A stretch of DNA of 64,000 nt from Amoebidium appalachense (lineage: Eukaryota > Protista > Ichthyosporea), in assembly GCA_963693365.1 (NCBI GenBank), contig CAVNZM010000006.1, positions 4,567,264-4,631,263 on the forward strand, read 5' to 3'. The notes under the pieces were generated by a model. That model made no database searches and was not told the DNA's origin. It saw only the letters and a program-made list of their open reading frames with translations. The translations under genes were made by a program, and so were the position numbers. This document shows, in pieces, positions 6,118 to 63,767 of the stretch; position 1 is the first letter of the stretch; every line of letters begins with the position of its first letter.

Positions 6118-6907
6118 CGAGCCCTTTTATTTTTTGTCCACGCATATAACTTTTTTTCTTGTCCCAAACCCCGGCAGACTCTCCGGAAGATCTTGTGTTT
6201 GAAGGTGTGTGTGTGCCTCGGACTTTTGTAAAACTTCACTTATTTCCCATAGTTTGATTCTAGAGCTCCCCCCTCCCCCCTCCTCGCCCCCCGCCCCCCG
6301 CCCCCCGCCCCCCGCCCCCTTTCCTCCCAGCCTTCCCTCCTCCTCTTGTGCCCTGGAATGGCCAAACAAAGATGCAAGCGATCCTCCATGAATATGGCTT
6401 TGTTGCTTAAAAACATCGTAAGCTACTCGGTTGTCATCCGCATTCGTTCTGGGACCTTGCTGTATACACCACTATGAAGGATCCTTAGGGACTATCAGCT
6501 TTGTAGCATTTCTGCGTTGCTCAGGATCCTTTCCTCAAGCCGTTTCTCCGGTTTGCTTCCTCAGAGTTTTTCAGAGTCAACCTACACATACGGGTTTCAA
6601 GTGCCGGAGTGATAAGATTTTGAGTTTCCAACACAAAGAGACTTCTCTCTTTTCCTGTTTGCTTGCTGACCACCTCCTGGCAGTTCTTGTCTATGGCTTT
6701 GCTACAACAAACATCATAACATGGCATTTTGAAACACGTCCATAACTGCCCGAATGCCCCCTCCATCCCCATCTAATCAACCCCACCCTTACCCTCATTC
6801 CCTTCCCCTAATAGTGCACAACACCTAGCTACGCACAACCCCCCTCCAGCATACCACCTCCCACCTCACTAACCTCCCACATCCCAGCTACCTACCACCT
6901 TCCAAAC

Positions 6908-8867
6908 ATGGCAAGCACGGCGACGTTCGTGACTTTCGAGCAAGCCTGCTCGACAGTTGCCAACTCCAATTGCTATGAGGACACTGAATTCCCAGCGGAC
7001 ATCAATACCATCGGGAAATTAGCGTCTGGAGACAATGTCGTTGCTGGTCCCGGGGGGGAGATCGTCTGGAAGAGGGCGACTGAATTCCTGCCCAACCACA
7101 AGCTGTTTGATGATGTCAGCCCCAACGACATCATCCAAGGAACATTGGGCGATTGCTACCTGTTGTCTGCCCTCAGTGTGCTTGCTGAGAAACCCGAGCG
7201 TATTCGCAAGTTGTTTGTGAATTCGTCGGATGGGGCCCAGGAGAAAGGGGTGTACGGAGTGCGGCTGCTGACCGATGGCATCCCACGTGAAGTGGTATGT
7301 GGTGTGTGTGTGTGCATGATTGTAGATGTGTGTGTGTGTGTGTGTGTGTGTTTGTGTGTGTGTGTACGTGTGCGTGTGTGTGATTGCTATCAAGCCGGTC
7401 AAAGCAAATGGGTACCGAACTTTGATACGGTAAAGATGAAGCCGTTTGAAAGACAGGGGCAGTTCTGGTGATGGGTCTTGCTGGTCTCGTATGAGCTGCA
7501 AAGTATTGTTAACGTCACGGGGTGTTTGTGGATAGTGCAACAGGGCGGGGGAGAAGGCAAGGGGATGGGTTGTTTTTTGAATTATTTTATTTTTATTTAT
7601 TCATATATATTTTTTTGGGGGGGGGGGAGGCGTGGGGAGGGGGGGGGGGGGGCATAAGGAGAGGGTTACTAACAAGCTCTAGCCTTTTCTGTTTTACGGG
7701 TCTGTTTGTGAATGCCTTTCTTTTTGTTTCGAGTACCTCTGTAAGAGGTTGTCAAGTGTGTGTTTGGTTGTTTGTGTATGTGATGGTGGTGTGTGTATTT
7801 GTCGGAACATGGGGGAAAAGGAGGGGGGGGCACGGTTTCCGTTTCCTTTCTCTTTTTTTTTGTTTATAGTTGGGTGTTTTATTTGTGTATTTGACGGAAT
7901 CTGGGGGGGGGGGGGGGGGGGAGCATGATTTCCATTCTTCTTTTTCTTTTTTATCCATACTTTTAAATTTTATTTGCAGGTTTTGGATGACAAGTTCCCG
8001 GTGTTCAGCAACGCCAACCAGCCATGCTTTGCCAAGCACCAGGGGGCCGAGCTGTGGGTGATGCTGCTGGAAAAGGCCTATGCTAAGTGCTACGGCACAT
8101 ACGAGGCTATCAGTGGCGGTGACCCAGGTATGCGTGATTTTAATTTTTTTTTAAATTTTAATACCCTAATGCAATCTTTCGTGGCAAAGTTGCAGTCCCC
8201 CTCCCCGCTCAGGCCCCGCTTTTCGATTTGATATATTGTTCTAGATGAGAGTAAGGGAAACGTGTGAGTCTATGTTGTTGGTGGTGGGGCAGCGCGAGGG
8301 GGGGGGGGGGGGGGTTGTACAGGTTGATAACATGAGCAAAACAATGGGGCATGCAGGATCGTATTAACACAACTGAAGAGAGCGAATCGTGTTGAAAGAG
8401 AACAAAGCTTCACCTTTCCTTTCGCACTCCAAGGGCCAAAGTGGCTTGGGTAGGCCGGGAGAACAATATGCATCAACAGAGGAAGTTGGAGCCCTAACAC
8501 TAACTTTTGATTGGTTGCATATCAGGTGACGCCCTGTCAGACCTTACCGGCCTTCCGCACGTGCGTTTCGACCTTCCGGGGACTGAGCCCAACCTGTTCG
8601 AGAAGCTTCGAGAATACGACGAGAAGGACTTTGTGATGTGTGCAAATGCACCCGAGGACCCCAACAGGGACCTGCAGAGGGAGGTTGGAATCGTGGAGGG
8701 GCATGCCTATGGCTTGCTGGCTGTGAAGCAGGTGTGTGTGTGGGGGGGGGGGGGGGGGGGGAGGGGAAGGGAAGGGATGGGTGTGTGAGGGGGGAGGGGG
8801 GGTATGAGAGTGTCCGTGTTAGTGGGTGTGAGTATGGGCCTAGACGTTCATTGGGGTGTCTTGAGCC

Positions 8868-8899
<32 letters not shown>

Positions 8900-9640
8900 T
8901 TCCCATTTGACTTCTGTTTTCCCTTCCGCCTTTGTGCACCCCCTTCGGTTTGTCCTTAATACCGGAACGGTGTCTTGGCTTTTTTTCACTAACGCCCCCC
9001 ACTCCCCCACTCCCCCCCCATACACACACACACCCAACCCCCATTCACCGCGCGCACTCCACCCTACCCAACACTTCGACACACAAAAACATCCACCGAA
9101 CCTCGTCCATCCCACCGGAACACAACACACACACACACGCACACACTAACACGTGCACGTACACACACGTACACACATGCAGCTCAGCACTGGGGACAAG
9201 GTGGTGAAACTGCGCAACCCATGGGGCAAAGTCGAGTGGACGGGTGCCTGGAGTGACGCCAGCGACAAGTGGACGGATTCACTCAGGGCTGAGGCTGGGT
9301 CGATTCAAGCGGACGACGGAGAGTTTTTCATGGCCTGGGAGGATTTCTGCCATTACTTTAACAGCGTGGTAGTTTTATTCTACCACGATGATTGGTCGAC
9401 GACGTATTGCCAGGTGAGTGGATGTGTTTGTCTGTTAAGGATTATTAAGGTGGGCATTGCGTGACATGATATCAATATGACGTCATTCCTCATTGATTTG
9501 GTGGTGTTTTGTGGTTTATGTTTCGTTGTCTCCACTTCCATAGTTCCAACCCTCTAATGCATGTACCCCTCCCCCCCCCCCCCCTCCCCCCCCCCCCCCC
9601 TCCCCCCCCCCCACACACACGCACACACACTCTCCCCCCC

Positions 9641-9692
<52 letters not shown>

Positions 9693-10435
9693 TATCCCCC
9701 GGGTGTTGCTATGATGCATATTCCTTACGTGTGCTTTGCAAGATTTGCATTGTGCTGTCCGGTGTAGGCGCACATTTTGTGATCTGTGGCTTATTATTAC
9801 CCCCCACCCACCCACCCACTCACCCACCTTCCCCCTTCCTCCCTCTCCTCTCCTTCCTTCCTCCCTCTTGCCTTCTCTTCCGAATATTCCTTATCTCACC
9901 CCCTCATTCTCCCCTCTCCCCCCCTCCCCCCGCCGCCCCCCGCTCCCCACCCTTTCCCCAGCACAATTTGCAGTGTTGTGCATCATGAATGTGCACTCCA
10001 TCAACTGTAACACGTTTTTCCCTCCCCCCTCTCCACCCCCCCCCCCCCCCCCCTCCCCTCTGTCGACTTAGGTATCGACGGGGGAGCTTCCTAGAAGCCC
10101 CGTCTCCTGAGTTCCTATCTATATTTTTCTTGCTTCTGCTTACTGCTGCAACTTTAACCCCCGGCCTTTCCCACTGCCCTTGCCTGCATAAGCAACCCTG
10201 CTCGTCTCTGATCAAGACGGGTGACCTACTCATGTTCAAGTGAAACAGTATCTGAGTTGGGTTTCGTTAACGAGGGGAATAGGTCGAAACTCGGGTACTG
10301 TGGATGACGTGGGCCCCCCTGAGGATGGGCTCTGCTTATTATGCATACTCTTTATGTATGGCTTGCATTCTGCATCGTGTTATCCGTTTGTTCTTGTGTA
10401 CTTCGTACTTTTTGACGCATTCAAAACCCCCCTCC

Positions 10436-10522
<87 letters not shown>

Positions 10523-10784
10523 TTTCTCCCTTCCCTTTCTTTTCCTCCTACAGACCAAGTTTGAGGCGGGGCAGCCCGTGATTGCAGTTGACGTTGAGGT
10601 CAGCCAGGATGGGCCTGGCATGTTCATTTTGTTCCAGAGGAGGGACAATCCTGCACCCATCCATGTGCGCTTCTGTGTGCAGCGCAAGGACACAAAGGAG
10701 CCCGTGGGGGGAAGTCTGCAGGTAGGGGTGGTTGGTTTGTGTGTGTGTGCGTGTGTGTGGGTTTTGTGTCTGGGCTGGGGGTAG

Positions 10785-10842
<58 letters not shown>

Positions 10843-11629
10843 TGTCGTGTGTGTTGGGGTTGGGAGGGAAGGGTGGTGGTGGGGGGGGGAGGGAGGGGGG
10901 AGGGGGGAGTCTACATTTCATTGTCTGTTCTGGATTTATTTCTGCACTGTGTTGTCTGTTGTGGATTTGCACTTCGTGCCGTGTTGCACCGTATCCCTTT
11001 CCTCCTGCCCTCCTCCTCCCGCTGAGGAATGGCTGTTCATGATTCATGTCGTGTGTGCTTTTGTTTTTTTTTGGATGGCAAAATCTGTAATGAATGTGTC
11101 GTGTCATCCGTCGCACTCTGCAAAACGTCCTAACCCCCCCCCCCCCCCCCCCCCCCCGGTGCCCCTCCCTTTTCCCCTTCCCTCCTATCCTTTCCTTCCT
11201 TCCCCCCCCCCCCCCCCCCCCCCCCCCCGGGTCTTCCTCCTTTTCCCCTTCCCCTCCCCCCCCCCCCCCCCCCCTTTTTTTTTTGCACACACACGCACGC
11301 ACGCACGCACGCACGCACACACACAACACACACACACACACACCTACCCACACACCCACCCACCCCCACAACACACATGCAGGCATTCACTTCTGCCGGC
11401 ACAATCGGTAGCCCTGAGATCCCCCTGACAGCCGGCACGTACCGTGTGCGCATTGAGGCCTACGGGGAGGATGCGGGCAAGCTGCCGCACCCGTTTGTGC
11501 TTGGGGTCTATTCGGCCCACCCCACCACCATCAACCCTGCATCAGACCCGAACCTGACCGAGTTCACCTTGCCTAGCTTCCTGCAGCAGTTTGGCACGGT
11601 AGGGGTTGGATTGTTCTTCACACATACTT

Positions 11630-11669
<40 letters not shown>

Positions 11670-12100
11670 CCCCACTGTGTGGAGACCGCTTTACTTCCAT
11701 GCAACCGGCCATGGTTGCTCTGTGTCGTGCATCTGTAGGCACATACGCATTTTTCGCTGCACTGCTTTAGTTTGCACACACATCTTCACCGTTTTGCTCA
11801 CCTTGCTTGCATAAGCAACCCTGCTCGTCTTTGATCAAGACTGGTTGACCCTCCCAAGTTCAGTTGATGCTGCTGTCTGAGTTGGAGAGTCGTATTTACG
11901 CGGGCTAAGGGGTCGAAACTCAGACGCAATTGATGACTTGGGCCCTCCCTGAGGATGGGCTCTGCTTATGACGCATACTTTGCGCATGGCTGATGTTGCA
12001 TACTTGAATGTTTGCCTTTGCATGTGTCCTGCACCATGCTTCTCATCGTGTATGCGTACTTCGTACCGTGTTCCGCATTCAACCTCCCCCCCCCCCCCCC

Positions 12101-12131
<31 letters not shown>

Positions 12132-12294
12132 CTCTTCACCCCGTCAAAAGTCTTTCTCCCTTTCTGAGAGTCTCAGAGACAATATCCATCTCTCTTTCTC
12201 TCTCTCTCTTCCCCCCCCCCCCCCCCCCCCCCCTCTCAATCTCCCTTTTCCTCTCCCTCTCTCGCCCTCTATCCCTCCCCCTCTCCCTCCCCCT

Positions 12295-12356
<62 letters not shown>

Positions 12357-12922
12357 CTCCCTCCTCTCCTCCCCCCCCCCCCCACCCATCCCCCCCGAAC
12401 ACACACACACACACACACATGCACACACACACACACACAATACATCATACCGTCTTGCAAATCCTTGCAACTCGTATCAATACTTCTTGTCTCTCGAGCT
12501 TCTTTTCTTTTGTCACTGATGTCCATCTCAACTTCCCCTCCTGCTCGCCCCCCTCCCCCACACACAACCACACTGCACACACACACACACAGTGCGGTGC
12601 CTGCAACACCGCCATGGGTGAGGCCAGTGTTGGTGCCCTGGGCAAGAAATTCCACCCGTCATGCTGGAAATGCGCACAGTGCAGTGGTGCACTCACCGGC
12701 CCATTCTTCCCCAAAAACGACAAACCCTACTGCGAGGCATGCACCAAGCAGAACGCTGACAAGTGCGGTGGGTGTGGGGAGGGCCTGGTTGGAGGATACA
12801 TTACCGCCCTTGGGAAGATGTTCCATCCCCCTTGCTTCGTGTGTGGGAAGTGCAAGGGGCCGCTCCAGGGGAATTTCTTTGTGGTGGCGAATGAGCAGCG
12901 CTGTGCTAATTGCTGCCACTGA
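6908..12922 (+). CDS. Calpain-family cysteine protease (CysPc + domain-III-like region) with two C-terminal LIM domains, ~561 aa
   Basis: Exons 6908-7294, 7980-8127, 8526-8731, 9183-9413, 10554-10721, 11383-11598, 12593-12922; all GT-AG with consistent phase. Catalytic triad motifs QGTLGDCYLLSAL, GHAYGLL, LRNPWG. Last exon has two CxxC..HxxCxxCxxC..CxxC LIM patterns. Confidence 0.92.
10067..10426 (+). mobile_element. Poly-C-associated repeat, subfamily A, copy 1 (calpain intron 4)
   Basis: Near-identical to 61014-61373, 53308-53637 and 57403-57581. Ends GCATTCAAA followed by a C-run. Confidence 0.85.
10186..10339 (+). ncRNA. Putative non-circularly permuted hammerhead ribozyme (subfamily A)
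   Basis: GUU at 10256-10258, GAAA 10286-10289, CUGAGGA 10319-10325. Stem III ACAGUAUCUGAGU/ACUCGGGUACUGU, stem II GACCUA/UAGGUC, stem I GGG/CCC. Covaries with subfamily B. Confidence 0.62.
11672..12082 (+). mobile_element. Poly-C-associated repeat, subfamily B, copy 1 (calpain intron 6)
   Basis: Near-identical to 58729-59121. Shares the structured core with subfamily A. Flanked by C-runs, ends GCATTCAA-C. Confidence 0.85.
11809..11970 (+). ncRNA. Putative non-circularly permuted hammerhead ribozyme (subfamily B)
   Basis: GUU 11881-11883, GAAA 11915-11918, CUGAGGA 11949-11955. Stem III GUCUGAGU/ACUCAGAC, stem II GACCCU/GGGGUC, stem I GGAG/CUCC. Confidence 0.62.
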
Positions 12923-24016: not shown

Positions 24017-24401
24017 CAGAAAAACTGGGCATTGAAGAGCTCTTTGTAGCATTCTTGTTTTTATGTTTCTATATGCCATACGAAATCATTAAATGTATAC
24101 ACAGTGTATGTGACAAATAAGCCTTCAAATCACTTTTTGCCCGCACGATGCATCAAAAGAGAACTTCGAACCCTGTCCATTAGAGTGACTCTGACTCACT
24201 TGGCAAAAACGTTTGAAAGTTTCAGGTGTTTCACGTGTGTCACACCGACCACACACACACACATGGGCTATCTCAAACACGTGACAAATCTAATCTCTAC
24301 CTTTTCGACAAGAAAACTCTACCTTTTCTTCTTGTCGATTGGTAACGCCTCCTTTTACTTTCCCTCTTCTTCTTGCAGCAGCATCTATATTATCATCGAA
24401 C

Positions 24402-24915
24402 ATGGGCTGTCCGAGTTTCAAACACCACAGAAACATGATGAGCGAGCTCTTGTTGGCTCAAGTGAGGTGGTGTGTGCGCGTGCTATTCCTCTTAGGTCTC
24501 CTCTCCCAGGTGTGGGCGGGTGATGTGGTTCTGCGAGCAGCAGGGGAGGACGGGGAGCTAAGAATAGCCTGCCTGGGGTATGTGTCACTCTATGGCGTGT
24601 GATCCTCATCTGTTCGATACATCATGTGTGTCTGTGCGTGTGTGTGCGTGTGCATGCATGTGTGTGTGCATGTGTTTTTATGTATGTGTGTGTGCGTGAG
24701 AATGTGTGCATGTGTGCGTACGTGTGTGTACGTGTTTGCTCGTGTGTTCGTGTGTGCTACAGTGTGTGGGGAAGGGGGCCATGTGTTCATGTGCGCGTGC
24801 GTGCGTGCTTGTGTGTGTTGGTGCGCACGTAGGCATGTGCGTGTGCGCGTGCGCATGAGTGTGCGGGTGCATGTGTGTGCGTGAGTGGGCGTGTGTGTGT
24901 GTGTGTGTGCGTGTG

Positions 24916-24946
<31 letters not shown>

Positions 24947-25517
24947 ATGTGATTAAATATGGCGTGAGTGTGCAGTGATAGCCAAGGTTGTTACAACGAC
25001 GACGTTGATGGATCTGTGTTTTTCTTCCTGCGCCAGTGTCATAGGTTCTTCCAATAGAAAGCCACTACAGCAGTTCCAAACATCGTTTCTTCTTGTAACC
25101 CATGTTCTGTGATAATAAATTATGTTCTTTTCACCTAGCCTTTTTAGCACACACACCTACCCGTTACATCTGACATACACACTTAAAGAGAAAGGGTAAG
25201 CCCTTATAGCCCTCGTGGGTAGGGTTAGGTAGTGGGGCTGGGGGCCGGGGGGGGGGGGGGGGGGGGGGGGGGGTGGAGAGGTGTGGGGGGGGGGGGGGGG
25301 GGGGGGGAAGCAACTTACACTGCACAAACTTGAAGATATCTGCAAGACCTGGTTGATCAGAGGCATATGACCCGCCCCTTCGCAAGCACTTTTCCCTTCT
25401 CATTACTCCTTATTTTATTCGGCCCACATGCCTGCCCGCCTCCCCTCTCCCTTCCCCCCAACCTCTGTCTCTCCACCCTCGCACACGCACACCCACACCC
25501 ACATGCACACGCTGGCG

Positions 25518-25550
<33 letters not shown>

Positions 25551-26016
25551 CCACCCACACACACACCCACACACCCACCCACACACACACACACACACAG
25601 AACCCCCCTCAACCCCCTGCCCCCCTCCCCCTCTCCTCCTCTCTCTCTCTCCCCCCGCCTTCACCCCCCCCCCCCCCCCCCACACACACACAAAACCCAC
25701 CCACCCGCCTGCCTTTCTGCCAGCCTAGCTCTCCCAACTCAAACACACACCTACCCCACAGGGACAGCCTCACCTATGGGAATGGTATGCACCTTGCTAA
25801 CGCCAACGGTACGGGGCCGATGCCAAATCGCGGCAACTATCCAATGATGATGGAGAAGAATCTGAAGAGGATTGTAAAGGCGAAGATGGGGTTGGAACTC
25901 AAAGTGGGAAATTTCGGTTTGAAATCGGCGACCGCCATGAAACTGCGTTCCTTCCCGGTGAGTCCAAAAAAAAAAAAACTTTTTCTCTAAAGAAGAATTC
26001 ATGTTGGACCCCCGAC

Positions 26017-26050
<34 letters not shown>

Positions 26051-26239
26051 CGGTGCCCCTTCAGGATCCAATGTGTTCACTTTTTTTTACTTATCCCTTA
26101 TTTGCCCTTCACCGTGTTCGTTGTATTTCCGTTTTTTTTTCTTTTTTTTGGTTTTTTGGTTTTTCGTTTGTATGTTGAACCACACTTCAACCCTTACAAC
26201 ACTCCCTCCTTCCTGCCTTCTCCATCTCCTTGTCCTCAA

Positions 26240-26278
<39 letters not shown>

Positions 26279-26364
26279 TTTTCCCCACAAAAAAAAAAAA
26301 GAAAAGAAAGAAACTTGTGGTCAGTACTGAACTGTCCTGTTACGGATGGAGGGGAGGGAGCCCT

Positions 26365-26395
<31 letters not shown>

Positions 26396-26867
26396 GGGGG
26401 AGGGGGGGGAGGGGGGATGGGGGATATGTCTGGTAGTTCAAATCGACCTTTTTTGAATACCGAGGGAGACTATTTTTCCCTCTTTCTTTTCGTCTTTTGT
26501 TCTTTCGCTTTCTGACTGTAATACTACAGAGGGGGGGTGACCGTGCGCAGGTGTCCTACTGGGATAGTGCTCAGTTTGTAGCTGCCAAGGAGTTCAACCC
26601 CCACCTCGTTATTATCTTGTTGGGCACAAACGACGCAAAGATCAAAACATGGTGAGTAAACTTACCACTTCCCCCCCGCTCCGCGGCTTCCCCTCCCCGG
26701 CCTGCCCTCCCTCCCTCCCCCCCCCCATCCCCGCGGCTTGCCCTTCTCCCCCTACTCTCCCCCTTCCTCCTAACACCACCACACATACAACTTATCATGG
26801 TACTAATGCAGACCACCACATTTATGCATACCCACCCACCCACTTATGTAGCCACAAGTGTACACAT

Positions 26868-26925
<58 letters not shown>

Positions 26926-26961
26926 TCACACACACACTCACATGCGCATACACACGCGTAC

Positions 26962-27005
<44 letters not shown>

Positions 27006-27087
27006 TACTCACACACACATACACACACACGCACACGCACACACGCACGCACGCATGCACGCACGCACACGCACGCACACACACACA

Positions 27088-27148
<61 letters not shown>

Positions 27149-28278
27149 GACCGACAAGGCCCGGCAGTTCTTTTCAGCCGACTATCGAGATCTCATTTCA
27201 GAGTTCTCGAAGCCAACAAGTAAGTAACCGCCAATCTCTCTTTTCAGTTTCTTTTCATCTTTCTTCTCTGATCTTACAGTGTGATGGCTGTATGTGTTTT
27301 GAGGCCACTTGCTATGTCTTATCTACACTAAAAATAATCCACCTCTCTCTCGCACAGCCTTTCAACGGCTAACGGTTCAATACAGACTACAGACTCTCTG
27401 GAAACTTTCCATCTAAAATGACGTCACACTGAGATACTTCCATATGTATTTCAGTGTGACGTCACATGCCATTGCGATTTTAGCCGGCGGCGGCAAAATT
27501 TTGGTAGTCTGACAGCGTAGTCTGTTTTGAACCGTTGTCCTTAAGGAGAAAAGGTTCAAAACCGACTATGTACGCCGTCAGACTAGCAAAATTTAGCCGC
27601 CACCAGCTGAAATTGCTGTCATGTAACTGCAGCCTGAGATACTTCCATATATCGAAGTATCTCAGTGTGACGTCATTTCAGATTGAAATTTTCCCGGAAG
27701 TCTGTAGTGTGACGGGGTACGTAGTCTTTTTTAAACCATTAGTCGTTACTGGACTGCTTTTCCTGGCCCATTACTTTTCTGCAGCACAAATTGCTGTTTA
27801 AGATGACAAAGGGTTCTAACCCAATTTGCTTGGCTTTACATCTTATTCCCCCAGGGATAAGAGTTGTATACAATCCGTTGCCTCCAAAAATAACTTCCCC
27901 ATTACTTGTTTGTTGTGAGCCTAGGGGTTAACCGGTGGAAAGGGGAAAGGACGAAGAAGGGGGGGGGGGGGGGGGGAGGGGGGGGAGGGGGGGGGAGAGA
28001 GAGAGAGTGGGGAGGTGATTTAATCACATGGTAGGAGTTTCTCTTCCTTTTAGGTAGCTCCTTCCGGTCTGTCCACGGGATCATTATCAGGAATAGGTAA
28101 TTCTAAATTTAAAATTTAGCATAAAACATTCGAACTTAAAGGTGCCACCCGGAAAGTTTTCACTTTTTCCTCCTAGGTGTAAAGCCTCTAAGATCCTGTT
28201 GGTTTTTACTGCTGGTAGACAGGGAGAAGGGTGGGAGGTGGGGGACCAGGGTGTAGTGGTGTGTGTGTGTGTGCGTGC

Positions 28279-28331
<53 letters not shown>

Positions 28332-28762
28332 TGTTGTAAATGTGGTGTGGATGTGGTGTGGATGTGTGGAAGGGAAGGGTCGGGGGGGACAGGGGGGGAG
28401 GGGGTGGTGAAGATAAGAGGGGGCGGGGGGGGGGGGGGGGGGGGGGGAGAAGTGAAAATGTGGAGTGGGGTTGAGGGGAGGAGAATGGGGGGGAGGGGGG
28501 GAGGGGCAAACATAGAGTCTAACGACTTGCGGTTGTGTGCAGATCCGTCCCTGCGTAAGATGTTGCTGGCACTCCCCCCCACAGCACACAGTGACAAGTT
28601 TTATGTCAAGGACGTCGATCTCCAATCAGGTACAGGATTTATTTTTAGTTTTTAGCTTTAAATCCCACGTGCCCACCTGAGGCCTATACAAACGCGACAT
28701 GTACTTTGGGCACACGATCACTGCAACAAACAGTAATAGGCTGACTTTCCCATACCCTGTCC

Positions 28763-28803
<41 letters not shown>

Positions 28804-29230
28804 ACACACACACACGCACGCACAAAAACAACAACAGCTAACACATACACAGGCTTTGGGATCCTGAATGCATTACTGGTGCACAAGGCAGCCCCTCCCT
28901 TCCCCTAGGCCTCCCCCCCCCCCCCCCCCCCCCCCCCCCTCCCCGGGTCCCCGGTGCCCCCAGGCTCTTTTTTCTTTGGACATGGGCTCTATTTTCCTAC
29001 TTTTTTTTATTGTTTTATAGAATCTATGGTTGTGGTGTGTATGGTCCTAGTGTGCTTATTTTTGCGTATCTGCACTGTGCGTTTAACCATGGATGTTTTG
29101 TAGGTTTTACCTGACTAACTCATTCACGCATACACTCACGCACGCACTTACTCACCAACATATACACAGGCACACGTGTACACGTGCACGCGCACGCACA
29201 AACGTGTATGCGCACGACGATGCACACACG

Positions 29231-29295
<65 letters not shown>

Positions 29296-29585
29296 GCCCC
29301 CCCCTCCGGCCCCTTCCCCGCCCCAAAAATAAATAAATCTAAATAAAATTTAATATATAATGGATAAAACAGTGGTGCGGCCTATGATAGAAAAGATAGC
29401 TACCGATTTGGGGCTGGACACAATCGACATGAGGGCAGTACTGGCCGCAAAATCGGTCGAGGCGGAGCAGGAGGAGAGGTGGGACATCGTTTTTTACCTC
29501 CCAAAATTTTTTTTTCTTTTCTTTTTTCTTTTTTTTTTGGGGGGGAAATTTTTTTCTTGTGTGTGTGTGTGTGTGTGTGTGTGTT

Positions 29586-29620
<35 letters not shown>

Positions 29621-30004
29621 GTGTGTGTGTGCGCGCGTGCTTGCATGTGTGTGTGTGTGTGTGTGTGCCTGTGTGCCTGTGTATGTGTGTGTGTGTGTTT
29701 GTGTGTGTGTGCGTGCGTGTGTGTGTGCGTGCGTGTGTGTGTGTGTGTGTGTGCGCGCACGCGTGTGCGTGTGTGCAAGTATGGGTGTGGGTGGGTGGGT
29801 GACTGAGTGGCACCGTGACTGGGTAGCTGGGTGTGCAGGTTGAGTGAGCCGGAAAGGAGGTGAAAGCAAAAAAGCACGCAACTGCACTCTGCCGACCTCC
29901 CCCCCCCCCCCCCCTCCCCCCCTTCTTCCACTTTCTGCTCCCCTCACCCCTCCTCCCTCGCCCCCCATCCGCCCCCCCCCCTCCCCCCCCCCCCCATTCG
30001 TGAG

Positions 30005-30048
<44 letters not shown>

Positions 30049-30245
30049 ATGGCTTCACCCACACAAGCAATCGCACGTTTACATACCATGTCGGTGTCTC
30101 CGTTGTTGTTGTACTTTGCATGTGTGGAATTGCCTACATTATAAAATGTATGTAGACAATGGCATTACACTTTGTATATGCACGGCCCGATGCATGCTTA
30201 ACCGTGAACGTGGAACAAAAGGAGAGGAAGGAAATGGGATTGGAA

Positions 30246-30278
<33 letters not shown>

Positions 30279-30381
30279 GGGAAGGGGAGGGGAGGGGGGG
30301 GGGGGGAGGAGGAGGGGGGAGGGGTTAGCGTTAGTGAAATGTACGGGCACGGATTGCATTCTGGTTTTCTAACCTTTTGCT

Positions 30382-30413
<32 letters not shown>

Positions 30414-30552
30414 TTTTTTTTTTCCCCCTCTTGTGGGCAGTTTTTGCATGGGGGAGGTGGGTGACGGGGTGCATCCGTGTGCAAGAGGTGCTGCAAAGAT
30501 GGCGGCAGCAGCGTCAAAGGCCGTACGTGATTGGATGAGCAGCAGCCAATAG
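24402..30552 (+). CDS. SGNH/GDSL hydrolase (acetylesterase/lipase-like), copy 1, ~282 aa
   Basis: Exons 24402-24577, 25762-25957, 26551-26651, 27149-27219, 28543-28629, 29373-29478, 30441-30552, phase-consistent. Blocks IACLGDSLTYG, NFG, LLGTND, DGVHP. N-terminal hydrophobic segment. Confidence 0.9.
27371..27740. mobile_element. Foldback/MITE-like palindromic insertion in SGNH copy 1 intron 4
   Basis: Imperfect ~370-bp palindrome centred on CCTTAAGG (27539-27546); arms ACTACAGACT...AAATGACGTCACACTGAGATACTTC and its reverse complement. Absent from the same intron of copy 2. Confidence 0.75.
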
Positions 30553-31211
30553 AAACGATCCATACGAGCAAAGGTGATGTGTGATTGGATAAACAGAAAA
30601 TAAAAGTGACAAGGTGGTGTGTAATGGGATAAACATGCATTCGGAATGACACATATGCACTGGTATCCATATTTCGTTCATGACAGAGATATCAATGGTA
30701 AATGAGCGCACCTTCAACAGACGCAATAACACACACACACGCACACATGCATGCATACACACGAACACACACACACACACACACACGAATACACACACAC
30801 ATGCATGCATGCATACACACGAACACACACACACACACACGCACGAATACACACACACATACGCATACACACACACGAGCACATACATACATACACACAC
30901 AACACACAACCAAACACACACACGAACACGATTTGCATACAAACGCGAAACACGTGCACATGAACACGCGCACACCAGGAGCACACGAACACATGCCAAC
31001 ACACGTCACACACACACACATGAACACATATAAAATGACATACACTGTGGTAAGCGCGGTTGTGCGCAACACACCTTGTATGAGCTCTTTTTATGCGTGT
31101 GTGTGCTGGGAGGGGGGGGGGGGGATTTCTCTGGTGCACATATACCTGTCAGACTCTGTACTCGGCATGTGCGGTGATATAACCCAGTAATCCGGATCCC
31201 CAGTCGCAAAG

Positions 31212-31404
31212 GTTAACTTTGTGTTCATACTAAGTTATCCGTAAGTTAACTTTGTGTTCATGCTAGGTTACTCTAAAGTTAACTCTGTGCTCATACTAAG
31301 CTACCCTAAAGTTAACTTTGTGTTCATACTAAGTTACCCTAAAGTTATTTTTGTGTTCATACTAAGTTACCCAATAGTTAACTTTGTGTTCATGAATAGT
31401 TACC
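31212..31404. repeat. 33-bp minisatellite (~6 units) GTTAACTTTGTGTTCATACTAAGTTACCCTAAA
   Basis: Units start at 31212, 31245, 31278, 31311, 31344, 31377; no spacers. Confidence 0.9.
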
Positions 31405-32234
31405 TCGAGAAGACTTCTCGACCGAAATGCTTTCTGTCTGCCTGACGGGGCAGAAAAAAATGATATTGTAACTATATTGTACAGATTTAAATTACCAGTA
31501 AATTTAATGTAGTCGCATAGGGGCCGGTTCCCGTATGCATGAATCGTTGAACAAAATATAAAAATTTCTGTATCATGAAAGGATATGCAACAATGTCAAG
31601 GAATCTTAGAATCTATTGCGTTCTATTCTTCGTTTTGATTGGGACCTTTTTATAGACTCCATGGTTTGAAAGTAATGAATTTCAGGGATCAGCCTAATGC
31701 CACCTAATAATTTAGGAGGTCGTTCAGAAACGCAAGACCCTCCATATCATTCTCATATTTTCTCGATGTTGACTAAATATGTTTATATGTTCACAAACAG
31801 TGTAAGGGCAAATAAGCCGTCACATTAATTTTTGTCCGCACCAAATGGTGCCAGGTGGCAACCACTGTAACTTTTGCCTGATTACTTCAAACCCTGCTCA
31901 TTAGAGTGGCTCACCAATGAGTCACAGACTGTACACCATGTGTTATGATGTGTACACATGCGGAGCTATTGCGGACGAAACGTTTGTTTTGTGCACACAG
32001 CGTGACCGTTATTGTCAAAGTTTTCATACGCAGTGACATTTTGTAGGTTGTAGGTTTTGCCACGGAACCACACCGTCCACAGTGTCACACACATTGTGAG
32101 CCATCTAGACAGCTGACATATATACCTCTGCCTTTTCTTCTTACCGATTAGTAACACTCCCAGTTACTTTCAGGATCCCTCTTCTTTATTTTCCCAATTC
32201 TTCTTGCAGCAGCATCGACTCGCATGCATTGAAA

Positions 32235-39594
<7,360 letters not shown>

Positions 39595-39996
39595 AAACGA
39601 TCCATATGGATAAAGGTGATGTGTGATTGGATAAACAGGCAGTTGGAAGGGCACAAACACACGGGTTTCCATATTTAGCTCACCCAAGCAATGTGAAGGA
39701 TTAGAGGCTAGGGCTAAAAAAAAGAAGAAGAAAAAAGACTAGTATAGCAAGCATTTGGATATGTATGTACGTGGGGGTGAAGTCACCAAAATGCCTAACT
39801 ACACACACTGTTGTTCGAATCTGGCAATCACGGATGTGCACACACACAACACACGCACGAACACACGCGTGAGCGCACACACACACACGCAAACACATGG
39901 AAACACAGGAACACATAATAACGTGACATACACTGTGATAAGTGCTCGTGTACGTTCACACCTTGCATGAGCTCTTTTTGTGTGTGTGCCTGGGGG

Positions 39997-40032
<36 letters not shown>

Positions 40033-40055
40033 TTGTTATCTTAGTATTGCATCCG

Positions 40056-40092
<37 letters not shown>

Positions 40093-40240
40093 GCTTTATT
40101 CCACTTGCTTTATGTCAAAGAGAGAAAAAGGGCTGGTGTACAAGTACTTCTAGTGTACATATTTCTCTGGTGCACATATACCTCTGCCTCTGTACTCAGC
40201 ATGGCATTGCACGGTGAGAACCTAATCCCCAGTTTTAGCG

Positions 40241-40402
40241 GTTAACTTTGTGTTCATCCCAAGTTACATGTAAGTTAACTTTGTGCTCATACCAAGTTAC
40301 CCGTAAGTTAACTTTGTGTTCATACCAAGTTACCCTAAAGTTAACTTTATGTTCATACCAAGTTAGTACCACAAGTTAACTTTGTGTTCATACTAAGTTA
40401 CC
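40241..40402. repeat. 33-bp minisatellite (~5 units), paralog of the 31212 array
   Basis: Same unit, downstream of SGNH copy 2. Confidence 0.9.
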
Positions 40403-40723
40403 TCGAGAAGACTTCTCGACCGAAATGCCATCTGCCTGACTGGGCAGAAAATGATCCAGTAACCAAAGATTGCAAACCTTAAGTGTTATTCCCCTGTATA
40501 GTGTTAGTTTAGTAGCATAAGTGTAATGTACAGTAGTGCACATACGGGCCGGTTCCCGTGTGAATAAGTCGTTGGACATCAACATTTCCGTATTACGAAA
40601 GTGTCTGGACAAAGTAACATGTCTCCACCTCCCTCTCGAACTTCACCGGGATCAATTGCAAACCAACGGTAACCCCCCCCCCCCCTCCCCCCGCCCCTCG
40701 GGGCCCCACCTCCGTAACACCGT

Positions 40724-52164: not shown

Positions 52165-53727
52165 ATGGCAGATCTTTTTGCTAACATCGATGCCGTGGGG
52201 GCCAGCAGGCACCCCAAGGATGAGAAGCTCAAGTATACCTACGGCACAGCCGGCTTCCGCACCAAGTGAGTGGGAGGGACTTTAGGTGGAAATTTTCGTT
52301 GGTTGTGTTGTTAAATATATTGGGAACCAACGTGGTTTGATATGTGCGGACACAATGCAGGTTCTCTTCGGGAGAATAGAGGTGATGGTTACGAGCCGTT
52401 TTCTATTTTACCGATAATTGCTTTTTTTTCTGATAGCAAGCAGGCACGGCAACGGGATCTGGTTTTTTTGACTTCAGGGATCCCCTTTCCCAGATGTATC
52501 TGCAGTGTCAATATATTGGCTCGCGTCGCTAGAACCCTTTGTTACTGCCGAGAAATCCTCCACTCCCCCCCTCCCCTCCCCTCCCCCTGTCCCTCCCCCC
52601 TTCATTTCTGTTTTGCTTTGCCCCTTTTCTTTGTCCAGAGATCTCGGAGTCCCTACAACTTGACAGGCTATGTCTGGCTGATGTGCAGGGCACGCTTGTG
52701 CCCAGATCTTACAAGCTTCGTACACCTAAGGGTAAATGAACAGTCCTTACTGAGATGTTTTTCTTTTTTTTTTTTCTTTTTGTATACAGGGGTGCCATTC
52801 TCGATAGTGTGATGTACCGCATGGGTCTTCTTGCTGCCCTTCGCTCACGCTGTCTCGGTGGGAAGACCATTGGTGTGATGGTGACTGCCTCCCACAACCC
52901 AGAGGAGGTCCGTATCCCCTAGTGACAAAACATTCATTCCACAATCTTTTTCAAAACCCCCCACCCACCACCCACCCTCCCCAATGGGCACGTACGCACA
53001 CACACACACGCACGCACGCACACACACGCACCAGCCGGCTCGCCCAACTTTTCTCTTTCCCTTCATCACCACATATCTCACCTCCTCTTCCTCCACCAGC
53101 CCCTTTTCGCATTGATGTTGGTTTCTACTTATCGTGTGCACTTCGCTTGTGTGTTCTCATTCGCTTATGCTCAGTTGAGATCCTTGCTGTTATTTGTTAC
53201 TCCATACTGAATTCATCGATCTTTACTCCCCGTTTATAATCCGCATCTTCCTGTTAGTTTTCTTTCAGAACTACTCTGCAGCCTATTGCACCCGCCCCCC
53301 CCCCCCCCCCCGTCTCCTGAGTTCCTATCTATATTTTTCTTGCTTCTGGTTACTGCTGCAACTTTAACCCCCGGCCTTTCCCACTGCCCTTTCCTGCATA
53401 AGCAACCCTCCTCGTCTCTGATCAAGACGGGTGACCTACCCATGTTCAAGTGAAACAGTATCTGAGTTGGGCTTCGTTAACGAGGTGAATAGGTCAAAAC
53501 TCGGGTACTGTGGATGACGTGGCCCCCCCCCTGAGGATGGGCTCTGCTTATTATGTATACTCTTTATGTATGGCTTGCATTCTGCGTCGTGTTATCCGTT
53601 TGTTCTTGTGTACTTCGTACTTTTTGACGCATTCAAACCCCCCTCCCCCTGCCTCCTCCGCCTCCCATCTACCCACACACACACACACCTGCCGATAATC
53701 CCCTCCCCTCCCCCCCCTCCTTCTCCC

Positions 53728-56817: not shown

Positions 56818-57643
56818 ACAACACACACACACACACGCCTTTTTTTTCTTTTCCCCCACACAGGCCAATGAGCGCCCCCTTCTTATCGACTGTGCCAATG
56901 GTGTTGGTGCCATCAAGACCAAGGAGTTTCTTGCCTATGCAGGCGACAGCTTCCCCGTTGTTCTTGTCAATGACGGAACCGATGGTGCTCTGAATGATGC
57001 TGTATATCCCCCCCCCCCCCCCCCCCCCCTCACCTCCCACCCCCTTCCCCCCGAATGTGTACTTTACACTTTATGGCACATCAACCCCCCCCCCCCCTCC
57101 CCCCATCCCTCCCCCAGGGGGTTCCCCAGCTCTTCGCCCCCCTTCCCCCCCCCCCCCCCCTCCCTCCCCCTCCCGTCCCCAACCTTTTTTTGGGGGAGGA
57201 GACGAAAAGGAGGGAGGGTTTGTGTGTGGGGTTTTTTGTTGGTGGTGGTGGTCGTTATGTGTGTGTATAGGGGGGGGGGGGGGGGGGGGAGGAAGAGGGG
57301 AGGGGGGGATATAGTCCTTCGTGTCGGTTGTTTTGCTGAACGGTTTTCAGATCTTCTGCTATGCACTTTCCGTTGTTTCTTCCCCCCAGGAGCCAATCCC
57401 CCTATCTGAGTTGGGTTTCGTTAACGAGGGGAATAGGTCGAAACTCGGGTACTGTGGATGACGTGGGCCCCCCCTGAGGATGGGCTCTGCTTATTATGCA
57501 TACTCTTTATGTATGGCTTGCATTCTGCATCGTGTTATCCGTTTGTTCTTGTGTACTTCGTACTTTTTGACGCATTCAAAACCCCCCCCCCCCCCCCACG
57601 ATTCCGAGATGCACTTAAAGCATCTCACACACACACACACACA

Positions 57644-58400: not shown

Positions 58401-59119
58401 GGAATATGGGCTCTGCTTATTAGGCATTCCCGTTGTGTAGTTTGCACTCTGCATTGTGTTGTCCGTTGTGAATTCGAGTGTGTATATCGCACTTCATGAC
58501 ACAATGGCATCTCTCCCTCCTCCCCCCTCCCCCCCCCCCCCCCCCCCCCCTCCCTGAGGATGGGCTCTGCTTATGACGCATACTGTGCGCATGGCTGATG
58601 TTGCATACTTGAATGTTTGCCTTTGCATGTGTCCTGCACCATGCTTCTCATCGTGTACGCGTACTTCGTACCGTGTTCCGCATTCAAACCCCCCCAGTCT
58701 TCTTTCAGAGGTGTCCTTTCAGGACAGGCCACTGTGTGGAGACCGGGCATGGTTGCTCTGTGTCGTGCATCTGTAAGCACATACGCATTTTTCGCTGCAC
58801 TGCTTTAGTTTGCATACACATCTTCACCGTTTTGCTCACCTTGCTTGCATAAGCAACCCTGCTCGTCTTTGATCAAGACGGGTTGACCCTCCCAAGTTCA
58901 GTTGATGCTGCTGTCTGAGTTGGAGAGTCGTATATACGCGGGCTAAGGGGTCGAAACTCAAACGCAATTGATGACTTGGGCCCTCCCTGAGGATGGGCTC
59001 TGCTTATGACGCATACTGTGCGCATGGCTGATGTTGCATACTTCAATGTTTGCCTTTGCATGTATCCTGCACCATGCTTCTCATCGTGTACGTGTACTTC
59101 GTACCGTGTTCCGCATTCA

Positions 59120-59165
<46 letters not shown>

Positions 59166-60279: not shown

Positions 60280-60860
60280 CACGTGCCCACGGCCTTCACG
60301 CCCACTGGTGTCAAGTATGTCCACCACAAGGCCAAGGAGTACGACATTGGTGTCTATTTTGAGGCCAACGGCCACGGCACGGTTCTCTTCAGCCCAGAGA
60401 CTGAGGCCCGCCTGCGCTCCATGGATCGCTCAAAGTATGTCTGCTCTCCCCTCCCAGCCCCCCTTCCTCCCTTTCCTCTCCCCTTCCCCCCCCCCCCCCC
60501 CCCCCCCCCCCTCCGCGCCCAACCACCAACCACCATTACCACCAACACATACACACATACACACACACGCGCGCGCGCGCGCACGTACACCCACCCCGAC
60601 ATCCTTCACTGGCGTCCTTCAATCAGATGCAATTGCCTGAAGGGGGTTCATATGCTTGTAAAATTTACAATTGATTAGAGTCCTTCTGGAAAATTGATAA
60701 ATTACCCAGGGCGTATAGCGTAGTGGATATCGCGTCTGCCTCCGGAGCAGAAGGTCGCAGGTTCAAATCCTGCTACGCTCGTTTGTTTTTTTTTTTTTCC
60801 TCCTTTTTTTGTCCTTTTTGTCGACGGCAAAGTCGCCGGGATCGAATCCTGGATCGCCCC

Positions 60861-60893
<33 letters not shown>

Positions 60894-61371
60894 TGGGTCC
60901 GATCCTGCGTGCTTCCCTCTCCCCGCCCCTCTTCGCCTGAGTATTTTTAAGCCTTCTACGATTGGTTATCACGACCCCATGAAACTCTATAGCGCATTCT
61001 AACCTCCCCCCCCCTTAGGTATCGACGGGGGAGCTTCCTAGAAGCCCCGTCTCCTGAGTTCCTATCTATATTTTTCTTGCTTCTGCTTACTGCTGCAACT
61101 TTAACCCCCGGCCTTTCCCACTGCCCTTGCCTGCATAAGCAACCCTGCTCGTCTCTGATCAAGACGGGTGACCTACTCATGTTCAAGTGAAACAGTATCT
61201 GAGTTGGGTTTCGTTAACGAGGGGAATAGGTCGAAACTCGGGTACTGTGGATGACGTGGGCCCCCCCTGAGGATGGGCTCTGCTTATTATGCATACTCTT
61301 TATGTATGGCTTGCATTCTGCATCGTGTTATCCGTTTGTTCTTGTGTACTTCGTACTTTTTGACGCATTCA

Positions 61372-61406
<35 letters not shown>

Positions 61407-63633: not shown

Positions 63634-63764
63634 GAGGATGGGCTCTGCTTATTTTACATATTGCGCGCGTTGCTGATGTTGCATACATGAATGTTTGCTT
63701 TTGCCTGTGTCCTGCTCCGTGTTTCTCATCTTGTACTCGTACTTAAATACCGTATTTCACATTC

Positions 63765-63767
<3 letters not shown>
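63634..63767 (+). mobile_element. Diverged 3' fragment of the subfamily B-like repeat
   Basis: GAGGATGGGCTCTGCTTAT...GCTGATGTTGCATAC...CATTCTAA followed by poly-C. Confidence 0.75.

Follow-up and report, generated by a model that had tools for sequence, protein, structure and literature searches.

The window, by which we mean the whole 64-kb stretch of DNA analyzed here, contains 10 fragments of a repeated element that falls into two subfamilies, A and B, all of them on the + strand (Table 1). Two of the fragments lie in introns of what is apparently a single calpain-LIM gene (6815-12919), whose calpain protease exons precede LIM-domain exons of equal orientation. The phosphoacetylglucosamine mutase intron that hosts a third also holds a tRNA gene (60709-60781, +, 68.6 bits, anticodon read by eye as Arg CCG) with a T-run behind it. 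Elsewhere the window carries a tandem duplication of ~7-8 kb (24354-31457 and 32185-40451, 70-90% identity), both copies of which give a weak GDSL lipase-like match, and a self-complementary stretch of ~330 nt (27383-27711, 78% identity) that is possibly a MITE or hairpin element. The body of the A copy has a stable hairpin at 10077-10104, upstream of the ribozyme module.

Nine of the 10 fragments terminate at one common 3' motif with a C-run next to it. At the 5' side the fragments end raggedly, in most cases next to a C-run. The copies at 61016 and 10063 are identical at 332 of 333 aligned bases. On the sense strand, C-runs outnumber G-runs in both host genes (15 vs 8 in the calpain-LIM gene, 40 vs 7 in the phosphoacetylglucosamine mutase gene), an excess that could be the cause of the sense bias of the copies. 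The two units of the partial tandem (58549-59121) are joined by 7 C only and differ at three positions in 140 nt; this arrangement fits copying through more than one round of a circular template, and two separate insertions are another possible origin. Among the 137 ORFs of the window, no reverse transcriptase or endonuclease Pfam family was found, and hence no autonomous partner was seen there. These features mark a non-autonomous retroposon of high copy number, truncated at the 5' end and intact at the 3' end, that inserts into poly-C, often in sense introns. The host is probably an ichthyosporean, as a cytochrome c1 exon has its best named match (78%) in a protein with the gene tag Clim, which denotes the ichthyosporean Creolimax; one exon is weak evidence.

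The A stretch is present in 20 of 24 listed sequencing runs, and in one DNA run 2,685 contigs contain the element at very high depth (contigs of four runs were examined). In the runs examined, contigs extend A by 399-465 nt further 5' than the window copy, and the A family unit is at least about 780-830 nt long. A 427-nt B contig from an independent run extends 161 nt upstream of the module; its start agrees within 1 nt with position 58696, assuming a 19-nt segment that is absent from copy 58847, and with that segment the B unit measures ~445 nt between C-runs. Many contigs terminate at the C-run at 10314-10317. An abundant chimeric contig of up to 898 nt, found in two runs, has only the 3' part of the module (10271-10346) attached to another 5' body; its stem II strand is changed, its interaction strand is disrupted and block S is apparently absent, and it is possibly another repeat with a captured 3' end.

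Core elements and covariation

Within the most conserved part of the element, the first-pass annotation had pointed out the motifs of a hammerhead ribozyme on the + strand, and all were verified where it had placed them; in copy 10186 these are GACC at 10223, GUU at 10256-10258, GGUC-GAAA-C at 10282-10290 and CUGAGGA at 10319-10325. On the two strands of the 64-kb window, a descriptor of four blocks in any order matched six times, and four of the matches are intact cores (copies 10186, 11809, 58847 and 61133). In all four the blocks run 5'->3' as [stem II 5' strand]-S(GUU)-G(GAAA)-C(CUGAGGA), hereafter II5'-S-G-C. Of the other two matches, one is weak and on the minus strand, and one falls on the 5'-truncated copy 57404, where the stem II strand is a chance match. 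The annotation had credited every core element to five copies; the intact core (CUGAnGA, GAAA, NUH, G10.1-C11.1, A15.1-U16.1) is present in four of the five full copies, the exception being copy 53396, in which G12 is replaced by A and which fails the core descriptor. Smaller blemishes are one mismatch in stem III of copy 58847 and one in P1 of copy 11809. Stem I is 3-4 bp long, and its C-run has six C in copy 10186 vs seven in copies 61133 and 57404 and in the sequencing-run contigs.

The conserved elements are those of classical hammerheads of types I-III (Rfam RF00163, clan CL00010), from which the element differs in order: II5'-S-G-C is none of CGS, GSC or SCG, and the earlier statement that no type I, II or III permutation fits is borne out. 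The Rfam model Hammerhead_1 scores A at 14.2 bits, below its gathering score of 34, and gives no match for subfamily B; its local alignment of A selects the same stem II strand (10223-10228). A stem II that joins U-GACC to GGUC-GAAA also occurs in an ordinary type II match (locus L108, below). Rfam miRNA matches in the window were discarded as low-complexity noise.

Table 1. Parts of the ribozyme module and copies of the element in the 64-kb window.
Feature	Position	Strand	Remarks
Ribozyme module, subfamily A	10188-10339	+	Ends paired by helix P0 (10188-10194 with 10333-10339)
CCC arm	10196-10198, pairs with GGG 10327-10329	+	Predicted junction arm; constrained folding
Hairpin P1	10200-10222	+	Predicted junction arm; constrained folding
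Stem II 5' strand	10223-10228 (G10.1 = 10223), partner 10280-10285	+	Two double changes A vs B
Interaction helix strand	10229-10236, partner 10306-10313	+	One double and one single change A vs B
Kink-turn-like motif, A	10241-10305; UGA 10241-10243 facing GAU 10303-10305	+	Tandem G.A, U.U, 3-nt bulge
Block S	10245-10261	+	Stem III 5' strand; G16.2-U16.1-U17 10256-10258; stem I strand 10259-10261
Predicted cut, copy 10186	10258/10259, after GUU	+	In block S
Hairpin P5	10262-10275	+	Prolongs stem I; loop self-complementary
Block G	10280-10301	+	Stem II 3' strand; G12-A13-A14-A15.1 10286-10289; stem III 3' strand
Block C minus stem II strand	10316-10326	+	Stem I strand 10316-10318; CUGAGGA 10319-10325; extra U 10326
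Kink-turn-like motif, B	11865-11867 and 11932-11934	+	C-stem of 3 bp, canonical
A copy, 5'-truncated	10063-10432	+	Intron of + strand calpain-LIM gene; C-runs on either side
B copy	11670-12082 (module 11810-11970)	+	Later intron of calpain-LIM gene; predicted cut 11883/11884
Diverged 3' fragment	37835-37915		
Older A copy	53311-53638	+	G12A, predicted inactive
A copy, truncated	57404-57582	+	Starts 9 nt upstream of predicted cut; without stem II 5' strand
Head-to-tail cluster	58401-59121	+	Diverged 3' fragment (58401); B 3' fragment (58549-58688); C7; apparently full B unit (58696-59121); period 433 nt
Young A copy	61016-61374	+	Core intact; intron between two phosphoacetylglucosamine mutase exons (+)
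Diverged 3' fragment	63638-63766	+	

Comparison of the two subfamilies, which are 78% identical over 193 nt around the module, 69% identical over the last 55 nt and poorly alignable elsewhere, indicates that the pairing is maintained. In stems I to III plus the interaction helix all 24 pairs are kept between A and B (16 identical, five double changes, three single changes and none broken), and the chance of all 24 surviving is 0.0006-0.012, depending on transition weight. The compensatory pairs that the annotation had listed for the three stems are correct. All 20 core columns are alike in A and B, whereas 33 of the 91 remaining columns within that span differ (p=0.0007). In a five-row alignment 98.1% of cells pair, a value reached by none of 500 shuffles. 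The counts of double changes and of extra pair types are unexceptional, as 129 and 436 of the 500 shuffles, respectively, matched them. The covariation amounts in effect to a single A-vs-B comparison of two subfamilies, with the B consensus drawn from two window copies and a few contig ends. Two variants of matching depth, 10227 T>C and 10281 A>G, were not counted as a compensatory pair because most of the 10281 signal, in two runs, is on the chimeric contig that starts at 10271; the variants hint at a third stem II type.

The covarying 5' strand of stem II sits ~100 nt upstream of CUGAGGA rather than directly 3' of it. The interaction helix, of 8 bp, begins right after this strand and has its partner just 5' of the stem I strand. 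That short motifs were merely juxtaposed by chance in a repeat is very improbable: a strict descriptor is matched by none of 20,000 dinucleotide shuffles of either subfamily, and the interaction helix, an unplanned fourth covarying helix, falls exactly at its type-SGC position (see below). The comparison of two subfamilies and the weak chance match of the loose descriptor elsewhere in the window weigh slightly the other way; in the same shuffles the loose descriptor is matched 14 times in 20,000 for A and six times in 20,000 for B.

The inserted helices stand apart from the stems in this respect, as P0, CCC/GGG and P1 are essentially invariant between A and B and without covariation support, and the P0/P1 region is conserved to the same degree as the core. 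The loop region of P1 (10210-10218 in A, 58871-58879 in B) fits the polymerase III B-box pattern, a match that we estimate to occur about once in 10 elements by chance; no A-box match was found upstream of it in either subfamily. The B-box pattern could be a reason for the invariance of this stretch. A likeness of the P1 loop to a second CUGAnGA was rejected, since the C3-G8 pair is absent and the likeness is at chance level by hand estimate.

Comparison with type SGC hammerheads

The annotation had taken a non-circular order as the unusual feature. The order S-G-C is already that of the published type SGC (HRIMA-1 and variants), which is experimentally active (Eckert et al., 2023, PMC10085705), and it is the split of block C, which does not appear in the accessible text of that paper, that is novel here. 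The element and type SGC share the S-G-C order, an extra U after A9, a doubly pseudoknotted core, and an interaction helix between a strand 5' of stem I and a strand 3' of stem II at the same alignment position; some of the aligned SGC members also carry U17 (PMC10085705). The element differs in that its block C is split, with stem II and interaction strands at the 5' end, such that it corresponds to SGC circularly permuted at A9/G10.1, where the same paper assumed that no interruption could occur. It further differs from the SGC ribozymes described there in having P0, CCC/GGG, P1, P5 and the kink-turn-like motif, in its length (~150 nt vs up to 104) and in its occurrence in eukaryotic genomic DNA rather than metatranscriptomes. 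Of three SGC features tested, two are present and an intact block C is not, and we do not file the element as SGC.

Eckert et al. know of no insertion of more than 1-2 nt between CUGAnGA and its stems, and report SGC ribozymes from metatranscriptomes only, with one weak bacterial type-GCS candidate in genomes of known organisms (PMC10085705). Their descriptor limits (stem I of at least 4 bp, linkers of at most 8 and 15 nt) are not compatible with the stem I of the element or with its linkers of 18-21 and 19 nt, and its stem II strand does not stand behind CUGAnGA, which supports the earlier expectation that standard descriptors would miss it.

A contiguous type-SGC ribozyme can also be drawn, with GGCU, two bases after A9, as the stem II strand and with the upstream GACC and interaction strand as a displaceable inhibitor. 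We regard this as improbable. It allows a 4-bp stem II in A, one of 6 bp in B, and a weak alternative interaction helix, and its two-base insertion is inside the limit accepted by Eckert et al. (PMC10085705); yet half of its pairs are G-U, they do not follow the A/B changes, and they include C.A and U.U mismatches in stem II of A and a U.U mismatch in the alternative helix of B. Moreover, P0, stem II and the interaction helix would have to be melted, and constructs without the 5' strand still fold otherwise in silico. The best reading is the one the annotation had favored, a non-circular, pseudoknotted core opened between A9 and G10.1, for which the split stem II strand provides covariation. 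Missing from that annotation were the interaction helix, a kink-turn-like motif, hairpin P5 and the setting in a retroposon.

Predicted fold and activity

When the core and stems I and II were forced to be unpaired, constrained folding gave P0, CCC/GGG, P1, the interaction helix, stem III and P5 in three of the four intact copies; in copy 61133 a rival local helix prevails. To this extent the helices that the annotation had placed between A9 and G10.1 do form in silico, although they are, as noted, the invariant part of the module. The scaffold has energies of -46.5 to -48.8 kcal/mol, as compared with -54 to -62 for the unconstrained minimum; stems I and II add -17 to -21 kcal/mol, pseudoknot penalties not deducted, and by these estimates scaffold plus stems is competitive with the unconstrained minimum. 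Unconstrained folds (z-scores -1.0 and -1.3) differ from the active fold, which is expected from the double pseudoknot. Rival pairings of the junction arms and P0 exist, and some of them bury G8/A9.

In the proposed fold, P0 would join both ends of the module. A four-way junction would have stem II on the core as its first axis and CCC/GGG stacked with P1 as its second, and would restore G10.1 next to A9 across the break in the backbone. A single molecule would then need a sharp bend. Kink-turns consist of a 3-nt bulge followed by tandem G.A/A.G pairs between a canonical and a non-canonical stem. In each of the five copies, the stretch that links stem III to the interaction helix has UGA facing GAU together with a 3-nt bulge. 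The B version combines the 3-bp C-stem with tandem GA and U.U, whereas A has tandem GA and U.U with an imperfect C-stem; such a motif, which was sought post hoc, arises in ~0.9% and ~0.8% of linker shuffles. Going by the geometry of kink-turns, the motif would supply the bend that a monomer requires, folding stem III back and bringing the interaction helix up to the tips of both stem I and stem II; an L7Ae-type protein or the element's reverse transcriptase might assist.

The same geometry bears on a domain-swapped dimer, in which blocks S and G come from one RNA, and block C together with the stem II 5' strand from another. A rod of ~25 bp separates the halves of the core, the loops of both hairpins show self-complementarity, and among loop substitutions the gain from dimerization ranks high, at 30 of 256 for P5 of A, 27 of 256 for P5 of copy 58847, 29 of 600 for P1 of A and 45 of 600 for P1 of B. 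Penelope hammerheads function as dimers, and host introns tolerate intact sense copies, which fits a dimer in that an isolated copy in an intron would do no harm and cleavage would be limited to element RNA that is tandem or abundant. We nevertheless consider a dimer unlikely, as the kink-turn-like motif would permit a monomer, copy 11809 has a P5 loop that lacks self-complementarity (rank 108 of 256), and the 3' strand of the rod is constant at 25 nt without indels, as an intramolecular fold would predict. Domain-swapped dimers would also solve a puzzle described in PMC10085705, that of SGC ribozymes in which the interaction helix adjoins stem III without a linker.

A further, unlikely reading is that activity has been lost. 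None of the 10 fragments starts at the predicted cut, and all six fragments that reach it extend 9-226 nt past it, so the templates were uncut or re-ligated. Summed contig depth, which is not a copy number, shows no step there; contig breaks at 10260 were rejected as a sign of cleavage, being due to a variant at 10230, 30 bases upstream. U17 at the cleavage position is a slow site. These absences of a start and of a step at the cut would suit a fold that is real but has lost catalysis, or a hammerhead-derived 3' recognition structure that binds a helper reverse transcriptase, as would the conservation of P0/P1 at the level of the core, the rival folds that bury the core, and the abundant chimeric contig that retains only the 3' part from 10271, apparently without block S. 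Against this, the catalytic positions and U16.1/U17 are constant across ~21% A/B divergence while neighboring positions vary, and stems I and II make sense solely as a hammerhead; we judge a non-catalytic fold about as unlikely as the dimer, or marginally more so. Collectively, the sequence comparisons and folding models suggest that the split-core hammerhead is real and probably active in cis.

Retroelement context and proposed copying cycle

5' truncation, a fixed 3' end, (C)n targets and head-to-tail copies are features of Chlamys/Penelope-like non-autonomous elements, and the element shows all of them. According to Craig et al. (2021, PMC8557442), Chlamys elements prefer (C)n, include families that are non-autonomous and arranged head-to-tail, and are for the most part without canonical hammerheads; the hammerhead cores of some Naiads match no descriptor. 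Non-autonomous Chlamys such as MRC1 share with the element the (C)n bias, 5' truncation, head-to-tail insertion, non-coding passengers and the lack of a canonical hammerhead (PMC8557442). The element differs in that no sequence similarity to them and no autonomous partner was seen, and the main text of PMC8557442 does not mention ichthyosporeans; of four short core motifs sought in the available part of its supplement, three were absent and one matched once without the rest.

Non-LTR retrozymes and the pLTR hammerheads of Penelope elements are likewise small non-coding hammerhead retroelements with putative circular RNA (bioRxiv 10.64898/2026.07.22.740005; PMC6765202; PMC11167929), but their hammerheads are of type I (often minimal and dimeric), in tandem arrays and depleted from introns, whereas copies of the element are mostly dispersed, sense-intronic and split-core. 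In a test for retrozyme features, we found no type I hammerhead and one partial tandem among the 10 fragments. The Penelope ribozyme tested in PMC11167929 needed protein for cleavage and was dispensable for insertion in vitro, which counts against a required role of the ribozyme in insertion.

Cleavage after GUU in tandem or read-through transcripts may excise a unit-length RNA whose ends would stay paired (>30 bp) and could re-join as a circle. A helper retroelement enzyme, most likely from a Chlamys-type Penelope-like element, would nick a (C)n:(G)n target, prime on the C-run of the element and copy through the re-joined cut, leaving copies that are fixed at the 3' end, truncated at the 5' end and at times slightly longer than one unit. 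That no fragment starts at the predicted cut fits such a cycle. Given an active split-core ribozyme, we see the case for and against copying from circles as evenly balanced, and that the helper is of Penelope type is slightly favored. A broader and more tentative proposal, which we hold to be possible but rather doubtful, is that hammerheads with a split core braced by a kink-turn serve, across eukaryotes, as the processing ribozymes that Chlamys/Naiad-type retroelements seemed to lack. The core would then tolerate a mid-strand four-way junction and consist of four movable blocks, allowing many more wirings than the six assumed, and in the present case a self-made RNA circle would be copied and directed by its poly-C run to poly-C sites in host introns.

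We found no description of a split-core or kink-turn hammerhead, nor of hammerheads in the ichthyosporean lineage, in literature searches that covered few subscription papers. None of the main texts of PMC10162972, PMC3088659, PMC13725137 and bioRxiv 10.64898/2026.10.21.760802, as far as accessible, mentions a split-core hammerhead, no printed account of the design was found, and PMC10085705 was the sole paper that we found on non-circular permutations. If true, a natural split core in a eukaryotic genome would break the assumption, made in PMC10085705, that CUGAnGA and stem II are inseparable, and ribozyme searches should cover a wider topology space. With it one could also test directly why Chlamys/Naiad elements seemed to be without hammerheads and whether such ribozymes circularize retroelement RNA, and the A9/G10.1 junction would be a new site for inserting a control domain. 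For experiments in vitro, subfamilies A and B are natural compensatory mutants.

To assess occurrence beyond the window, we scanned 176 loci, comprising 11 viral, 44 from prokaryote genomes and 121 from a loose scan of metagenomes (12 of 64 parts); a strict scan of the metagenomes gave no loci. Blastn found no relatives among the 176 loci at E<0.1, and the best nhmmer match had E 0.19. The descriptor gave 25 matches, six of them in the same block order, which were taken as chance rather than as relatives, having short stems or long gaps. Ordinary-looking type II hammerheads occur in metagenome and viral contigs (L108, L010 and L011), with two in L108 (6-52 and 403-448) that lie ~400 nt apart.
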